DNA of 64,000 bases from a virus (Duplodnaviria > Heunggongvirae > Uroviricota > Caudoviricetes), in IMG/VR virus record IMGVR_UViG_2851976983_000001, positions 32,001-96,000 of that record; one strand, 5' to 3'. This document shows positions 8,701 to 32,192 of the stretch, in pieces; the stretch's first letter is position 1; every line of letters begins with the position of its first letter. The notes under the pieces are model-generated. The model searched no databases. It was not told the DNA's origin and saw only the letters and a program-made list of their open reading frames with translations. Made by a program: the position numbers and the translations under genes.

Positions 8701-9250
8701 TAGGGTGCGGATAAACCACACTATAGAAGTTGTCTTTTCCACCCGCTGTAATCAGTGTGCTTATGATTTTTGCAAAATCGTTGCGTTGGAACACGCTACC
8801 GATGTCGGAAGTAAGCAGGATGATGTTACCTTTGGCATATGTAGAAACCAACTGTTCGAGCGAGAGACGCGGTACAAAGTAGAACTGTTCTCGTGTGTTG
8901 GCCGCCGTCATTAGTTCGCAGATGTCGCGATATCCTTTCTCATTTTTAATTAGAGCGGTAAACGAGTAGTTACGTCCTCGCTCCAATGATTCCATACATC
9001 CCTTAGACTCTTTAGCAAGTTTAGCCCGGTGCTCGTATGTGGGATCATCAACGATGTTTAGTTTCACACCACAAATAACCGCCATGTCGTCACCAGCGGC
9101 ACGTTGTAGTGGAATAACGCTCGCAATATTCATGCTATCTGCTGAAATTACAGCGGTGTAGCCAGCTTCTCTGGCAATCTTCACCGCGTTTTCTGCTTTT
9201 AAAGCCGACTCCCCAAGTGAGAAGTCAGTTCGAACCATCAGTGCCTTCAT
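5732..9250 (-). CDS. DNA polymerase III alpha-type (DnaE-like, PHP domain) replicative polymerase
   Basis: 1172 aa; motifs GPGRGSSAGSLVAW, LLFERFINPER, FQLESGPM, ALFRPGP, ILYQEQ, FNKSHSVAYSLISYQSMWLKTHYPAEF align with E. coli DnaE core motifs. Confidence 0.85.
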   Translation of the reverse strand: MKALMVRTDFSLGESALKAENAVKIAREAGYTAVISADSMNIASVIPLQRAAGDDMAVICGVKLNIVDDPTYEHRAKLAKESKGCMESLERGRNYSFTALIKNEKGYRDICELMTAANTREQFYFVPRLSLEQLVSTYAKGNIILLTSDIGSVFQRNDFAKIISTLITAGGKDNFYSVVYPHPTPFYDQINVRAMKVASALKIEPVAFYPAYYESIDDADIKDIAHMVTNNIKIDQPHRLRIPHQRDNAINGRRHLLEALKAFSVRMDVPVTAAMASTTQDSIIDACTWRWHELPPALPKMADDEPATLMKLAVAGLRKRLTTKEFGYTPPASENRVYVERLKYEMDTLTRLGFCGYFLMVRDLMNHSRETGIPVGPGRGSSAGSLVAWCIGITNVDPIRHGLLFERFINPERLDLPDADLDFSQARRHEVIEYLNERYGEDYVAGIPNFTYLGAASALRDTARIYGVDAADMAVSKEFKNMEDDSLSLEELREQLASLDKYATKNPEAFKAACKLQSLMRGFGRHAAGMIVAGVPLVERTPVELRGNARCIAFDKRYCEAMGLIKLDVLGLATLDLLDSAKRYIKESTGEDINLDAIPLDDRKVLDGFAAGYTQGVFQLESGPMRKLLKDLGGGIEPMSFKTVVATTALFRPGPIQSGMLDDYVSVAKGFMTPTSLHPVLDELTSETNGVILYQEQTMNATRLLAGFTMAEADGVRSAIGKKNMEKMRSMGEKFVIQAQAGWIDVELENGAIQRIHRAEHFKCEDGTLRTVEEALEHGVKLPMPVVRVTTSHPGLSETKAKEIWTAFEKNGAYQFNKSHSVAYSLISYQSMWLKTHYPAEFFAAALTILGEDKHQGLVKDALTYGIRVLPPDVNVSSNRIEIRTLEDGSQALYAPFSAVKGCSENGCQAIMRAREKVGGKFESVAQFDEAVEKRACNSRVRESLHKVGAFASIEPGSLPATDPERLRDQAELMGNLIIDAVKASRPFEMNPKRSAEINVLMTRMAAEMGLGEELIRPTIGIKPKIMIILDNANGNDARTGYFMENGYDDFKAKLLTVGDLRMGDLYVTGVCKKVKDKEKDYTKDEIGQFTDFMREEINLVRPTYILTCGSRSTALFNNKSKPSDLIGRKEYFPELDATVFYGFNPNILYFRPEEGERLEAILADIAETINK

Positions 9251-13181: not shown

Positions 13182-13358
13182 TCAATCAATCCATTCTAAC
13201 TTATACTATGGTAAGGAATACTACTAAAATTTGTATCAATACTGAATACATTCATATCATATGCAAGTTAATTTTCTTACCTATTTTGGGCTAATTTTTC
13301 TCCGTGCAATGGCCTTTAACCGGTCTTTTAAGTGCCTATCGAAAATAATGATAATAGC

Positions 13359-13386
13359 TTTACAACCCTAACCTTTGATGTAATAT
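13359..13386 (+). promoter_or_regulatory. candidate sigma70 promoter TTTACA-16-TAATAT, followed by palindrome GGTAAG-CA-CTTACC (13393-13406)
   Basis: Read directly, upstream of the HTH gene. Confidence 0.4.
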
Positions 13387-13432
13387 CGGTAAGCACTTAC
13401 CAGAGAGAATTGAACGCGCAAAGGTTGTAACC

Positions 13433-13819
13433 ATGTCTGATAACAAGATTGAATTTATAGAAAGTCGCTACGCTGCTTTTATCGCAGGGTTGATTGAATC
13501 CTCACCTATGAGCCAGGCCCAGATAGCCAAAACAATTGGGTATAAAAACGCCAACAACCTTTCTTTAATTAAAAGTGGCAAAATTCCTTTGCCTATCGAT
13601 AAGGTTCGTCCGCTGGCGCTGGCGCTGGGTATTGAGCCTAGTCGTCTTATGATGATGGTGCTGGAAGAACGCCAACCTGAACTCGCAGCATTTTTGTACA
13701 AAGAAGGCACCGCTCCTCTTAACGAGGACGAAAAACAGGTTCTTGCTGCATATAACGAGCGATTCGGTAAAGAGAAAGGCGCATCACAAAAGGTTGTTGA
13801 GGCCATAAAGTCTCTATGA
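13433..13819 (+). CDS. XRE-family helix-turn-helix regulator
   Basis: 128 aa; MSQAQIAKTIGYKNANNLSLIKSGK HTH pattern; convergent with recombinase gene and overlapping its 3' end. Confidence 0.7.
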   Translation: MSDNKIEFIESRYAAFIAGLIESSPMSQAQIAKTIGYKNANNLSLIKSGKIPLPIDKVRPLALALGIEPSRLMMMVLEERQPELAAFLYKEGTAPLNEDEKQVLAAYNERFGKEKGASQKVVEAIKSL

Positions 13820-14917
13820 AAAATTTACACGAATAAGCTCTGTTGATAGACGATCTCCCTTGAATTTGTGGTCAATTTCGTCTAAATCCGGTTGATCTAC
13901 GATTGATGCGATGTACGTCGAGAAACTTTCTAAGGCGTCTCGCATCTCGTCCATATAATCGTGCCGGTCGTAGACCCGATCTATCCCCTCAAGACTGTGG
14001 TTCATGATTTTGCGTGATACCTCCTGGCTTATGCCTAATGCTGGGAAGTAACTACGCGCAGTACGGCGCAAATCTCGGGGTGTAAATGGCTCAAGCTCCA
14101 TCAGTTCTGGTCGTTCCAGAATACGACGTAATGCCTGGGCTATTGCCACTTTAGACATAGGAAGGTCTTTCCCGATTTTTTTATTCGAAGGCACGAGCCA
14201 CTGGCTGTCTTTACCGTATTCGAACAACTCTTCAATGCATGTGCGCATTAATGTGCTTAAAGGCAGCGAATGCTCACGTGCTGACTTGTTTCTCTTGCCT
14301 TGATTCCAAACTCCACGCTTAAGATTGAACTCACTTTTTTTAGCCCGCAGTACTTCGTCAGGTCGTCTTGCTGATACAAGACACAGTCTGGCCGCCCATT
14401 TTGTACCAGCGCACACATTGAAGTAGTCCCATATATTCCAGAACACCCATACCTCTGCGTCGGTCAGCTTCCGCTCGCGAGGTGTGGGCTTTGCGCCACC
14501 GGCAACTTTGTTTAGTGACATATCGTTTAGCGGTGACACGTCTATCATCCCCTGGAAGGCGCACCAGCTAAGGAACTGCTTCATCAGAGAGAAAACGCGG
14601 CGGCCCATAACAATTTTGCCATCCAATATTAGAGGGTTGACCAGTTGGTTCACCATGAACCTATTAATGTCACTTACTTTTACATCAGCAATGTGCGGCA
14701 AAACATGTATCAAAATACAATGAACAGCGATCTCTGGCCGACGTCTGGTTATCAGCAGAGATAAGCGAGTGAATAACATGAATGCGTCCGAGAATCTCAT
14801 ATCATTGCTAACCTGCGAGATCATAACGGCCTGCATTTGAGATGCTCTTTCGAGATACTCAATCGCCTCTTTTGAGGTGTTCTCCGCAGCGCGTGCTCTG
14901 TCAAAGCTATTTTTCAT
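13814..14917 (-). CDS. tyrosine site-specific recombinase (integrase/resolvase family)
   Basis: 367 aa; C-terminal catalytic pattern DLRRTARSY ... MNHSLEGIDRVYDRHDY (R, H-x-x-R, Y). Confidence 0.8.
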   Translation of the reverse strand: MKNSFDRARAAENTSKEAIEYLERASQMQAVMISQVSNDMRFSDAFMLFTRLSLLITRRRPEIAVHCILIHVLPHIADVKVSDINRFMVNQLVNPLILDGKIVMGRRVFSLMKQFLSWCAFQGMIDVSPLNDMSLNKVAGGAKPTPRERKLTDAEVWVFWNIWDYFNVCAGTKWAARLCLVSARRPDEVLRAKKSEFNLKRGVWNQGKRNKSAREHSLPLSTLMRTCIEELFEYGKDSQWLVPSNKKIGKDLPMSKVAIAQALRRILERPELMELEPFTPRDLRRTARSYFPALGISQEVSRKIMNHSLEGIDRVYDRHDYMDEMRDALESFSTYIASIVDQPDLDEIDHKFKGDRLSTELIRVNFS

Positions 14918-15015
14918 ATGACAATCACCGAGTTACGCCGATTCACTGTATAAGTAAACAGTATATTAGGCATAGATTCTTATAGGATCAAGAGTAAAAG
15001 TAACTCATTTTCAGC

Positions 15016-15048
15016 AATGATTCCATACATAGTAGGTATGGAATCATT
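15016..15048. repeat. perfect 13-7-13 palindrome AATGATTCCATAC-ATAGTAG-GTATGGAATCATT (candidate recombinase core site)
   Basis: Both 13 bp arms are exact reverse complements; about 100 bp upstream of the recombinase start. Confidence 0.55.
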
Positions 15049-15102
15049 TAGATGTTGTTTTTTGAATTTTAAGGGAAACAGGAGTGAGTTTGGTGGGAAT
15101 AA

Positions 15103-15126
15103 AAAACGGCTCCTGTGAGCCGTTAA
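15103..15126 (-). terminator. intrinsic terminator AACGGCTC-CTGT-GAGCCGTT
   Basis: T-run on the minus strand downstream of the glutaredoxin gene. Confidence 0.6.
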
Positions 15127-15128
15127 AA

Positions 15129-15377
15129 TCAGAGGGGGCTGACGTATGCAGCCAGTTCTGTGTATCCGCCAATCGGTTGACCATCGATCAGTACTTGGGG
15201 GATAGTCTCTACCGGTTTACCAACAATTTCACTTAGTTTTTCCTTGTCGATACCGGCAGTGGTGATGTCGATGTACTCATAATCACCGTAGCCATGTCCC
15301 TTTAGTTGCTTCGCCATCTCGACCGCACGTTTGCAGTATGAGCAATTATCGCGTCCGTAGATAACGACCTTCATCAC
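15129..15377 (-). CDS. glutaredoxin / NrdH-like redoxin
   Basis: 82 aa; VVIYGRDNCSYCKRA with CxxC active site. Confidence 0.8.
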   Translation of the reverse strand: MMKVVIYGRDNCSYCKRAVEMAKQLKGHGYGDYEYIDITTAGIDKEKLSEIVGKPVETIPQVLIDGQPIGGYTELAAYVSPL

Positions 15378-15968: not shown

Positions 15969-16757
15969 TTACTGATAGGCTTCCAGTGCGACTTTGCATA
16001 GCTCAGAACGCACGCAATCTTCGGTCGCAAACTCAATAAGGCCAACATGGGAGGAAGGTTTAAATCGCTCCAGTGCATCTTCCAGACCAGACTTAACATT
16101 GCTTGGCAGGTCGCATTGCGTCACATCTCCGTTCACAATGACGGTTACGTTCTCGCCCATACGGGTCAGGAATATTTTCATTTGTGACGCTGTAACGTTT
16201 TGCGCCTCATCGAGAATGACTACAGCGTTCTCGAACGTGCGCCCACGCATGTAAGCGAATGGGGCAATCTCTACTTTGGCCACCTCTGGCTTTAAGCAAT
16301 ATTCAAGGAACGAGCCACCCAAACGCTTCTGTAACACGTCATAGACGGGACGGAAGAACGGAGCGAACTTCTCGCTCATGTCGCCCGGAAGGAAGCCCAG
16401 ATCTTCTTCTGCTTGCAATACTGGACGCGTCACGATGATCTTCCCGACTTCCTTATCCAGCAGACGCTGCGCTGCGACGGCAGCTGCCAGGTAGGTCTTG
16501 CCGCAACCGGCTTCACCAGTGGCGAACGTCAGAGGTTTGGTATCGAGGGATATAAGATAGTGGGCCTGGGCCTCGTTACGTGCTTCGATGGGAGAGTTGT
16601 CACGTTTAGGTTTTGGTGGCAGAGCAGGGGCGGCAGCCAGCTCGTCAACGATGATTGTGTCAATTTCGTAGCCGTGGATGCGTGGTTTTGACTTCAGCGC
16701 CTGACGAGCTGCGCGACGCGCCTGTTTACGTTTGTTTCCCATATTGAGTCCTTTCAA
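15969..16757 (-). CDS. PhoH-like ATPase
   Basis: 262 aa; Walker A GEAGCGKTY and Walker B VVILDEAQN. Confidence 0.85.
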   Translation of the reverse strand: MKGLNMGNKRKQARRAARQALKSKPRIHGYEIDTIIVDELAAAPALPPKPKRDNSPIEARNEAQAHYLISLDTKPLTFATGEAGCGKTYLAAAVAAQRLLDKEVGKIIVTRPVLQAEEDLGFLPGDMSEKFAPFFRPVYDVLQKRLGGSFLEYCLKPEVAKVEIAPFAYMRGRTFENAVVILDEAQNVTASQMKIFLTRMGENVTVIVNGDVTQCDLPSNVKSGLEDALERFKPSSHVGLIEFATEDCVRSELCKVALEAYQ

Positions 16758-31824: not shown

Positions 31825-32192
31825 TTTGTAGCAGAATCATCAGCCTTAACCGTGCTGACAATGCTACCATGATTGCGTAAGAAGCGGCGAATAGAATGTT
31901 CAATAACCTCCGAAAAAGCCTCGATAAAACGAGACAGCTCAGGGTACTGTTTAGCTGGCTTGACTACAAAACGAACACGACCATTCAGGTAAATTGCTTC
32001 AGCTAATGGCTTCACGCTTGCACCAGCGCGCTCAACATCGTCTTTGAAGGTAACGATGAAGCGTGAGTCTTCCGGTTCAATAGCGTCATTATTGAGCTTA
32101 CGTACTTCAAGCTTGTGCTGATTCAGCACATGAGTCTCGATAATACTCGTGCAATCGCGAATAGTTTGTATAGAACGTTTCTCGTTCAGCAT
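31809..32192 (-). CDS. hypothetical protein (127 aa)
   Basis: ORF track. Confidence 0.45.
   Translation of the reverse strand: MLNEKRSIQTIRDCTSIIETHVLNQHKLEVRKLNNDAIEPEDSRFIVTFKDDVERAGASVKPLAEAIYLNGRVRFVVKPAKQYPELSRFIEAFSEVIEHSIRRFLRNHGSIVSTVKADDSATKWLLH

Follow-up and report, generated by a model that had tools for sequence, protein, structure and literature searches.

We analysed a tyrosine recombinase gene (int) and the palindrome beside it in a 64,000-nucleotide (nt) stretch of DNA from a virus of the Caudoviricetes, positions 32,001 to 96,000 of IMG/VR virus record IMGVR_UViG_2851976983_000001. This whole 64-kb stretch is called the window below, and positions are those of the window. 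The recombinase (Int) and the palindrome almost certainly form a cognate enzyme-site pair, as judged from their co-variation among relatives. We believe, with a probability of about 0.55, that the primary and ancestral function of the pair is the resolution of plasmid multimers. An earlier note on this DNA had described the two as a Cre/lox-like unit with a helix-turn-helix (HTH) gene as partner, and its coordinates were all correct. The two features at issue are the following.

15016-15048, no strand: predicted core recombination site AATGATTCCATAC-ATAGTAG-GTATGGAATCATT, from sequence and comparison; arms 15016-15028 and 15036-15048, spacer 15029-15035
13814-14917, minus strand: int, tyrosine recombinase of 367 amino acids (aa); open reading frame (ORF) with matches to Pfam PF00589 (E 4.7e-10) and to a PHROG integrase (8e-47)

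The perfect 13-7-13 palindrome is present exactly at the position reported, and the gene described as a tyrosine recombinase about 100 bp from it does match Pfam Phage_integrase. Int starts 98 nt downstream of the palindrome, which lies inside the int promoter region. Within the window this is the sole perfect inverted repeat with arms of at least 13 nt and a spacer of 3-12 nt. No comparable inverted repeat was found in 40 random sequences matched in composition (first-order Markov), with about 0.01 expected.

The comparison set consisted of about 140 loci. A scan of viral contigs for both arms with any 7-nt spacer gave 93 stretches, and a protein-pattern scan of one genome per species gave 47 genome loci from at least 13 Enterobacterales genera; plasmid loci were read in addition. 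An inverted repeat with a 7-bp spacer lies 38-150 nt upstream of int in all relatives examined, whether viral, genome or plasmid loci. Every viral contig with the arms that holds enough DNA also carries an int homologue (59-100% aa identity), the site being 45-101 nt from its start. The inverted repeat is found upstream of int at 47 of the 47 genome loci, with imperfect or hybrid arms at five of them (Chimaeribacter, Biostraticola, one Pantoea). The arms read (A/G/T)TGATTCCATAC in lineage 1 and TGACTCCAGAC in lineage 2, in which Int is 44-52% identical to that of the window; the two differ by two substitutions, at the same two positions on both arms. Single-base variants likewise occur on both arms at once, as GTGATTCCATAC in Klebsiella pneumoniae pCRKP18622-1 and as TTGATTCCATAC in a Klebsiella oxytoca plasmid. 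Among the 93 viral contigs the arms and the spacer length are constant while the spacer sequence is free (ATAGTAG, TTAATAG, CTACCAA, CTTACAA, TATATAA, TTACATA and others). Over viral and genome loci together at least 12 different spacers were seen, always 7 nt long. A recombinase core site would be expected to show just this combination: arms that are conserved and that change symmetrically along with the phylogeny of the enzyme, and a spacer that is fixed in length and free in sequence. Simple sites of this kind have two inverted elements of 11-13 bp around a 6-8 bp crossover region and no arm-type sites, and a 13-7-13 arrangement was found at the approximately 140 loci. This co-conservation and symmetric co-variation support the earlier proposal that the palindrome is the recombinase's own simple site.

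Some further observations were made on spacers and arms. The spacer is inverted in situ between near-identical elements with the same flanks, reading CTACTAT in PhiR41_1 and ATAGTAG at locus L047; the same inversion, TTAATAG/CTATTAA, separates L031 and L112 from L006/L005. Two Yersinia pestis records both have the spacer TTAATAG relative to int. Spacers of the form nTAnTAn are symmetric save at positions 1, 4 and 7. Such flips could arise by wrong-way synapsis by Int or by hairpin-loop inversion. An exact lineage-2 arm, TGACTCCAGAC, occurs at L104 (10320-10330) within a RelE/ParE toxin gene that is cargo of a lineage-1 K. oxytoca plasmid (about 0.01 expected by chance), and a ParE/Phd pair adjoins the palindrome in Xenorhabdus (L107).

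The sequence of Int was compared with those of well-studied recombinases. When a profile of 44 aligned homologues was aligned to lambda Int (residues 41-342), R185, K211, R284, H307 and Y316 of Int fell on lambda R212, K235, R311, H333 and Y342, as expected of a member of the superfamily; R281 completes the set at a position where His is usual. Judged by this alignment, the catalytic set of Int is intact, R281 being an atypical but conservative exception shared by the whole clade. The nearest P4-like outgroup retains the box-II His, and natural exceptions at this position are reportedly described in a 1998 survey by Nunes-Düby. An AlphaFold (AF2) model with a predicted local distance difference test score (pLDDT) of 86.5 and a predicted template modelling score (pTM) of 0.78 shows the two-domain fold, core-binding (CB) plus catalytic, of these enzymes. 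The best match of the model in the Protein Data Bank (PDB) by Foldseek was lambda Int (1z1b; E 2e-7, TM score 0.60), and the top matches, with probability 1.00, were lambda Int, Tn1549 Int, XerA, IntI and XerH. Cre entries appeared from the 37th rank downward, with E 1e-2 or worse.

In a phmmer search with Int no PDB sequence was found, and no match to Cre was obtained by phmmer or profile search. NCBIfam PRK09692 matched Int with E 1.4e-8, at 33.8 bits versus a cut-off of 434, and nuclear magnetic resonance (NMR) structures of CB domains were among the closest profile and fold relatives. The nearest outgroup by sequence consists of P4-like chromosomal integrases (26-34% identical) with the arm-binding domain PF13356 (DUF4102). 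This domain is present only in the outgroup (P0114-P0120); the Int clade lacks it and has an all-helical N-terminus, which fits a site without arm-type repeats. The properties of a P4-like heterobivalent integrase, namely PF13356 with scores above cut-off and a chromosomal attB, were not found. A kinship with Cre, as implied by the earlier comparison, is therefore contradicted by fold and profile, which place Int nearest to lambda Int and the P4-like integrases; the profile search against the integrase families gave lambda/P4-like relatives and no Cre match. From these profiles and the model, Int appears to be a branch of the lambda/P4-type integrases that has turned into a simple-site enzyme, with a Cre/loxP-like architecture but outside the Cre family. 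All database records annotate the gene merely as 'integrase'.

The window belongs to a phage-plasmid of the SSU5/pHCM2/pMT1 type, in the SSU5 supergroup, whose persistent genome is known to include a tyrosine recombinase with no role assigned (PMC7969092). The region around int shares 96-97% identity with Escherichia phage Cyrano (the phage-plasmid pLF82) and matches E. coli plasmid CP025897.1 at 100%, and has relatives in 838 plasmid records from Klebsiella, Escherichia, Enterobacter, Yersinia (pMT1), Salmonella (pHCM2 type) and others. Collinearity with Cyrano extends over nearly the whole window and covers the recombination genes, replication, ParA, lysis and tail/head genes. A tRNA-Asn gene lies 4.7 kb from int and does not adjoin it. 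The recombinase is thus located amid phage genes, with ParA present and no tRNA next to it, as the earlier note had stated.

The pair is carried by plasmids only. The site region was found in 249 of 5,426 complete E. coli genomes (4.6%), at 253 places, all on plasmids; no chromosome in these 5,426 genomes gave a match to the 176-nt site region. Chromosomal attB sites or integrated copies were consequently rejected. In the plasmid collection the family comprises 921 records with 924 places, and 888 of the 921 records are non-mobilizable. One recombinase and one full site are present per plasmid. The apparent duplicated sites in the two-match records H65, H103 and H109 are actually a group II intron, an insertion sequence (IS) insertion and frameshifted genes. 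Carriers include pMT1 of Y. pestis, the pHCM2 type of Salmonella Typhi, and Klebsiella and Enterobacter phage-plasmids with resistance genes. More than 30 loci keep Int and the palindrome without the HTH gene, cobT, dnaE or phage genes within 10 kb. These non-phage loci are from Pantoea, Rahnella, Erwinia, Ewingella and Hafnia; the known replicons among them are plasmids of 300-570 kb (Pantoea, Rahnella, Erwinia), and the rest, including Ewingella and Hafnia, are large unassigned contigs. A plasmid role, which the earlier note had preferred to chromosomal integration, is by far the likelier of the two, given zero chromosomal versus 253 plasmid places and one copy on each of about 920 plasmids. 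SSU5-type elements were also described as exclusively extrachromosomal by Pfeifer et al. (PMC9600943).

The presence of a single recombinase with an adjacent simple site, one per replicon, on mostly non-mobilizable low-copy plasmids, phage and non-phage alike, points to multimer resolution. One recombinase and one site per replicon, plasmid-borne and independent of mobility and phage functions, is the pattern found throughout. Cyrano has a copy number of about 5.5 per cell (PMC9928086). Neither Cyrano nor the window showed a dif/cer-like Xer site, and the annotation of Cyrano lists no second site-specific recombinase that could do the work. We propose that int encodes an active tyrosine recombinase of the simple-site type with the 33-bp palindrome as its cognate site. 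By analogy with Cre, Flp and Xer, one Int protomer would bind each 13-nt arm, two sites would synapse, and strands would be cut at the edges of the 7-nt spacer and then exchanged. In a fused dimer of a low-copy phage-plasmid, recombination between the directly repeated sites would yield partitionable monomers. The reverse, intermolecular reaction would fuse co-resident relatives with a shared spacer and could make the site a breakpoint for module exchange. The earlier note had suggested a P1-like role, and its two parts fared differently. Dimer resolution is probable, within a plasmid role that is supported by the location of all 253 of 253 places on plasmids. Circularisation of infecting DNA, in contrast, is unlikely to be the main role: in Cyrano some 40 kb separate the site from the terminase genes, so that it would rarely lie within a terminal redundancy.

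The region between the palindrome and int contains two further predicted elements.

14963-14991, minus strand: predicted sigma-70 promoter of int, read from the sequence; -35 TTGATC at 14986-14991, 17-nt spacer, -10 TAATAT at 14963-14968
14944-14963, no strand: LexA (SOS) box CACTGTATAAGTAAACAGTA, between the palindrome and the int start; 16 of 20 positions match TACTGTATATATATACAGTA

The putative promoter matches the consensus at 8 of 12 positions, under the 9/12 threshold of the promoter scan, and the block ACAGTATATTAGGCAT is the same in Klebsiella phage pJN2-26 as in the window. The LexA box abuts the predicted -10 element with a 1-nt overlap and is the only AT-rich CTGT-N8-ACAG in the window. 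At 84 of the 88 loci with Int of at least 79% identity, CTGT and ACAG stand at a fixed distance of 53-55 nt from the palindrome, with eight variable bases between them. Neither the lineage with Int of 62% identity or less nor lineage 2 has the box. An AT-rich centre, overlap with a promoter and conservation are what a LexA box would show at the level of sequence, and conservation at a fixed position with a variable centre argues that int is very probably SOS-induced in the main SSU5 lineages. We infer LexA control of int from these features. With such a box in its promoter, int would be expressed at a low level in the lysogen of the SSU5/pHCM2/pMT1 lineages and more strongly during the SOS response, by which the phage is induced as well. 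Ciprofloxacin gives a 39-fold induction of Cyrano (PMC9928086). Two insertions between int and the palindrome, in the 5' untranslated region of int or the LexA box, were also observed. ISKox3 is present at L105 (5713-6933; E. coli WEM25 p1), with an 8-bp duplication, ATAAGTAA, within the LexA box, and a group II intron (retA) is present at L157 (18053-19537; K. pneumoniae pKPHS1).

Single copies of the arm sequence were found elsewhere in the window, and are listed here as half-sites.

8986-9000 (12-mer 8986-8997), plus strand: ATGATTCCATAC+ATC within dnaE, pointing at the palindrome; exact 12-mer search
20034-20048 (12-mer 20037-20048), minus strand: R1, ATGATTCCATAC+ATC, at the distal end of the variable region, in non-coding DNA upstream of tRNA-Asn; exact 12-mer search
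21057-21071 (12-mer 21060-21071), minus strand: R2, ATGATTCCATAC+ATC, its ATG starting a 50-aa ORF (20919-21071); exact 12-mer search
14300-14311, plus strand: degenerate half-site TTGATTCCAAAC within int, doubtful

The window thus has three extra copies of the exact arm 12-mer, each followed by AT(C). In the 108-kb genome of Cyrano the half-sites and the two arms are the only copies of the 12-mer, with no single-mismatch copy and 0.013 expected by chance. All copies are aimed at the palindrome, those to its left being on the plus strand and those to its right on the minus strand. Relatives with Int identities as low as 59% have half-sites at equivalent positions, within flanks that drift; for R1 the core is 100% conserved and the flanks are 55-62% conserved. 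R1 is missing from pMT1, and the dnaE and R2 copies are missing from K. pneumoniae pCRKP18622-1, in which both the arms and the R1 copy begin with G and not A. The copy within int, which the lineages of Klebsiella, Salmonella and Yersinia have as TTGATTCCATAC+ATC, is doubtful because the V-W-N-Q codons may hold it. Lineage-2 loci contained no half-site copies or comparable repeated motif, so half-sites are not needed for the basic reaction. The ATC extension is found in no palindrome spacer.

Several explanations of the half-sites were rejected. They are not remnants of degenerate full sites, as no partner arm lies 7 nt away. As promoter elements they showed no consistent -35/-10 by eye, and no promoter scan covered those positions. 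A replication origin or terminus, suggested by the mirror symmetry, does not fit, as the GC skew does not switch near 15 kb and repA does not lie opposite the site on the Cyrano genome. Three ideas may be considered: that half-sites bind Int monomers for regulation, for which the recombinase-fold repressors YopR and SroF would be a precedent; that they are scars of one-armed insertions, which suits R1 and R2 and not the sites in ORFs; or that they act through complementarity at the RNA level. R1 lies in a stretch of about 750 nt without an ORF (19869-20616), around which relatives have three or four tRNA genes and the window has tRNA-Asn alone.

The side of the palindrome away from int is bounded by the glutaredoxin gene grx.

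15049-15075, no strand: distal flank element, about 9 nt followed by a T-run and a GAAWTCT-like motif; from a comparison of more than 50 distinct right flanks
15105-15124, minus strand: intrinsic terminator-like hairpin of grx, from a terminator scan; edge of the cargo slot, empty here, that separates the palindrome from grx
15129-15377, minus strand: grx, upstream of the palindrome

The slot between the palindrome and grx (15049-15128) is empty in the window and holds 0.7-2.3 kb of unrelated cargo in most relatives (L001-L099). In Cyrano the cargo is a 555-nt ORF (CYRAN_43), the gene most over-expressed in the lysogen at 723 times the local background (PMC9928086). PhiR41_1 carries a gadW-like regulator and more, pJN2-26 carries three ORFs, and other elements carry toxin-antitoxin or colicin-type genes. 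In pMT1 of Y. pestis the slot holds the whole caf1R-caf1M-caf1A-caf1 F1 capsule operon (L005, NC_004835, 9203-14992), directly beside the palindrome and in place of the grx-phoH-tRNA block and half-site R1. At least eight unrelated right flanks stand behind int genes that are at least 97% identical. Flank identities were obtained by BLAST with length filters. Several relatives whose int is 95-99% identical lose homology to the window right at the end of the palindrome, at 15048-15049. L013 and L033 are 97.8% identical to the window (E. coli-type) up to that base; beyond it, their 1.2-kb cargo matches the cargo of Enterobacter/Salmonella-type elements at 92-93% identity, and on the int side those elements reach only 75%. 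This switch of identity indicates an exchange of DNA between lineages, one junction of which was at the palindrome. The right end of the cargo showed no second arm, not even a degenerate one, and the best matches there were 7-9 of 12, equal to those in random 80-mers; capture as in integrons or integrative mobile elements exploiting Xer (IMEX) is consequently unsupported. Cassettes bounded by attC next to an attI, as in integrons, were not seen, and each plasmid has one full site. Turnover of cargo may come about when Int fuses co-resident relatives and the product is then resolved by homologous recombination in the backbone, or it may be a plain change of a permissive intergenic slot between two conserved features.

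The T-run/GAAWTCT element lies beside the palindrome in most lineages, drifting, whichever cargo comes next. In Pantoea megaplasmids two CTCAGAAT repeats, 11 nt apart, lie just beyond the palindrome on the side away from int. The distal flanks compared for the two motifs include those of L109, L122, L125 and L137. The T-run/GAAWTCT/CTCAGAAT flank may be the site of an accessory protein.

On the other side of int lies the HTH gene.

13433-13819, plus strand: XRE-type HTH gene, 128 aa, convergent with int and overlapping it by 6 nt; match to PHROG 'transcriptional regulator' (1.3e-11) and, below threshold, to HTH_19/HTH_3

The convergent arrangement reported earlier is correct, the two genes overlapping tail to tail by 6 nt. 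Phage-plasmids of lineages 1 and 2 alike keep it, with Int identities as low as 44%, and it is absent at the megaplasmid loci. The Cyrano orthologue, CYRAN_45, annotated as a putative repressor, is transcribed in the lysogen (PMC9928086). Domain searches matched no S24 peptidase domain in the HTH protein, so any SOS input to it would need to be indirect. Upstream of the gene, GGTAAG/CTTACC repeats (13206-13405) that include the palindrome GGTAAGCACTTACC (13392-13405) are unlike the Int site and are candidate HTH operators. The HTH protein is probably a prophage regulator or repressor specific to phage-plasmids and outside the recombination unit. Its description as a partner of the recombinase does not hold, since it is a neighbour confined to phage-plasmids and missing at the megaplasmid loci that keep the pair. 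The same loci, more than 30 megaplasmid loci with Int and palindrome and no HTH gene, exclude the scenario, raised in the earlier note, of a palindrome that is only the operator of the HTH protein.

Several points weigh against multimer resolution as the function of the pair. The first box-II His (lambda H308) is replaced by Arg281 (codon 14075-14077) in the whole clade, which is rare. A LexA-repressed promoter would be unexpected for a housekeeping resolvase and hints at a role during induction. The solitary half-sites are left unexplained by resolution, and we recognised no accessory-site architecture that would favour resolution over fusion. The homology breaks at the palindrome, which would suit Int-mediated exchange, can also arise if the palindrome is conserved while a neutral adjoining slot turns over. 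Finally, we found no paper that defines a site, activity or role for any member of the family, in a literature search that was incomplete.

Among the other explanations, an SOS-induced lytic function in the SSU5 lineages deserves most attention, although we would give it odds well below those of resolution. Int would fuse monomer circles into packaging multimers, or the int transcript, antisense to the putative HTH repressor gene, would be part of the induction switch. The LexA box with its fixed position and variable centre at 84 of 88 loci would suit such a function, as would the 39-fold induction of Cyrano by ciprofloxacin and the transcription of CYRAN_45 in the lysogen (PMC9928086), the int/HTH overlap maintained in phage-plasmids of both lineages, and the indirect SOS input that an HTH protein with no matched S24 domain would need. 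However, the box is lacking at 62% Int identity or less and in lineage 2, including the phage-plasmids of Xenorhabdus, Providencia and Morganella. The Int/site pair also thrives on non-phage megaplasmids, and the ancestral function therefore cannot be lytic; a lytic role can be added to resolution as a further layer and need not be an alternative to it. A more speculative idea, to which we give a little less weight, is that the palindrome is the hub of an SOS-switched Int network that regulates the replication/accessory region through the half-sites, together with Int-driven swapping of the highly expressed cargo between co-resident phage-plasmids. After induction, Int would act on three or four half-sites, among them those in dnaE, before the tRNA/grx-phoH block and at the ATG of a gene for a small membrane protein. 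If this were true, the family would combine recombinase and regulator in one hybrid and would give phage-plasmids a dedicated point for exchanging accessory genes. Capture of cargo in an integron- or IMEX-like manner is unlikely. Int would insert circular DNA at the palindrome, and R1 and R2, which are oriented as expected of hybrid sites, would be scars of older one-armed insertions. Integron integrases are reportedly LexA-controlled (Guerin, 2009), which counts in favour of capture. So do the eight or more unrelated flanks behind int genes of at least 97% identity, and a slot filled with 0.7-2.3 kb in most lineages, with the caf1 operon in pMT1 and a cargo ORF expressed at 723 times the local background in the Cyrano lysogen (PMC9928086). 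Against this stand the single full site per plasmid and the lack of a second arm at the right end of any cargo (7-9 of 12, as in random 80-mers). Half-sites are also present within the intact dnaE and int ORFs and so are not insertion junctions; they share an ATC extension that is absent from every palindrome spacer. Unlike a cassette, moreover, the stretch from R1 to R2 stays constant and is conserved.

Two further readings have far less to recommend them. That the palindrome is a classical attP through which the phage-plasmid enters a chromosomal attB is very improbable, even though the gene is labelled 'integrase' in all database records and its nearest sequence relatives, 26-34% identical, are P4-like chromosomal integrases. 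None of the 253 E. coli places is chromosomal, no chromosome gave a 176-nt match, no tRNA adjoins int, and the enzyme has no arm-binding domain and the site no arm-type repeats and perfectly symmetric arms; SSU5-type elements are, moreover, exclusively extrachromosomal (PMC9600943). We can hardly credit the last reading, in which the recombinase acts at some other place and the palindrome serves as an operator, for the HTH protein or a different regulator, or as an RNA hairpin or terminator. The palindrome is 24 nt upstream of the predicted -35 of int, so that a protein bound there, Int included, could regulate int, and a 13-bp stem would fold in RNA. Yet the palindrome stays with Int where the HTH gene is absent, as it does at the loci that led us to reject it as an HTH operator; the arm sequence follows the Int lineage, and the HTH gene has its own, different upstream repeats. 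As a terminator the palindrome is unsuitable, since its arms are AT-rich with no T-run directly after and a separate terminator exists, as the earlier note had pointed out; it is that of grx, at 15105-15124 on the minus strand. A chance hairpin was rejected in view of the 40 random sequences.

A search for RNA families (Rfam-type) over 8-22 kb of the window gave a tRNA plus sub-threshold matches only. Among the latter was the Yersinia small RNA Ysr251 at 15973-16167 (plus strand), antisense to a phoH-like gene (57.9 bits against a gathering score of 100, E 6e-13).

A tyrosine recombinase beside a simple palindromic site on a plasmid prophage is a known kind of system, and the gene is listed in SSU5 pangenome work and annotated as an integrase in hundreds of records. 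New here is a widespread and medically visible pair with an unusual active-site Arg, predicted SOS control and satellite half-sites. Multimer resolution at this site is a possible explanation of how low-copy phage-plasmids stay monomeric. The palindrome is also a fixed landmark beside which accessory genes sit, including the plague F1 capsule operon, and the LexA box would tie the int/site module to the SOS response that induces these phages. The pair may be of use as an orthogonal recombinase/site pair for genome engineering, with two natural specificities (TGATTCCATAC and TGACTCCAGAC arms).

The closest parallel in architecture is Cre/loxP of P1. Both systems have one tyrosine recombinase on a plasmid prophage beside a simple site with perfect 13-nt arms, a short asymmetric spacer and no arm-type sites, on a low-copy plasmid with its own partition in which dimer resolution is expected. 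However, there is no detectable sequence kinship, and in fold Cre matches with E of about 1e-2 compared with 2e-7 for lambda Int. The spacer here is 7 nt and not 8, and the site lies 98 nt from the int start in the promoter region of the gene. A LexA box and solitary half-sites are present here, and the activity of Int is inferred. ResD/rfsF of F and XerCD at cer, psi and dif are plasmid multimer-resolution tyrosine recombinases that act at an adjacent site. They resemble the present pair in the proposed function and in having one site per replicon. XerCD differs in that no dif/cer-like site occurs here, a single enzyme is present, and no accessory region of the ArgR/PepA type was recognised; with a single Int enzyme and identical arms, the active complex would presumably be a homotetramer. 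The P4- and lambda-like integrases are the closest relatives in sequence and fold (PRK09692, 1.4e-8; PDB 1z1b; the CB-domain NMR structures), and a 7-bp overlap region is typical of them. Unlike these, Int has no PF13356, attP arms or tRNA attB, is never chromosomal in the E. coli set, and has Arg in place of the box-II His.

Integrons share with the present system a recombinase that is transcribed divergently from an adjoining site with variable cargo beside it, and a LexA box at its promoter. In contrast to IntI/attI, there are no attC-like sites and no second site at the cargo here, and the site is a perfect duplex palindrome and not a folded single strand; IntI (2a3v) is also a weaker fold match to Int than lambda Int. 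Two other systems bear on the solitary half-sites. TnpI with its IRS site (Tn4430/Tn5401) uses the same short motif at the core inverted repeat and in additional single copies, although these accessory repeats lie within about 100 bp of the core, compared with 0.7-6 kb for the single copies here. The recombinase-fold repressors YopR of SPbeta and SroF of phi3T (PDB 9rd5, which appeared in the fold search) recognise a motif at many sites for regulation; they have lost catalysis, whereas Int retains the catalytic residues. By analogy, TnpI, YopR and SroF may offer a lead to what the solitary half-sites do.

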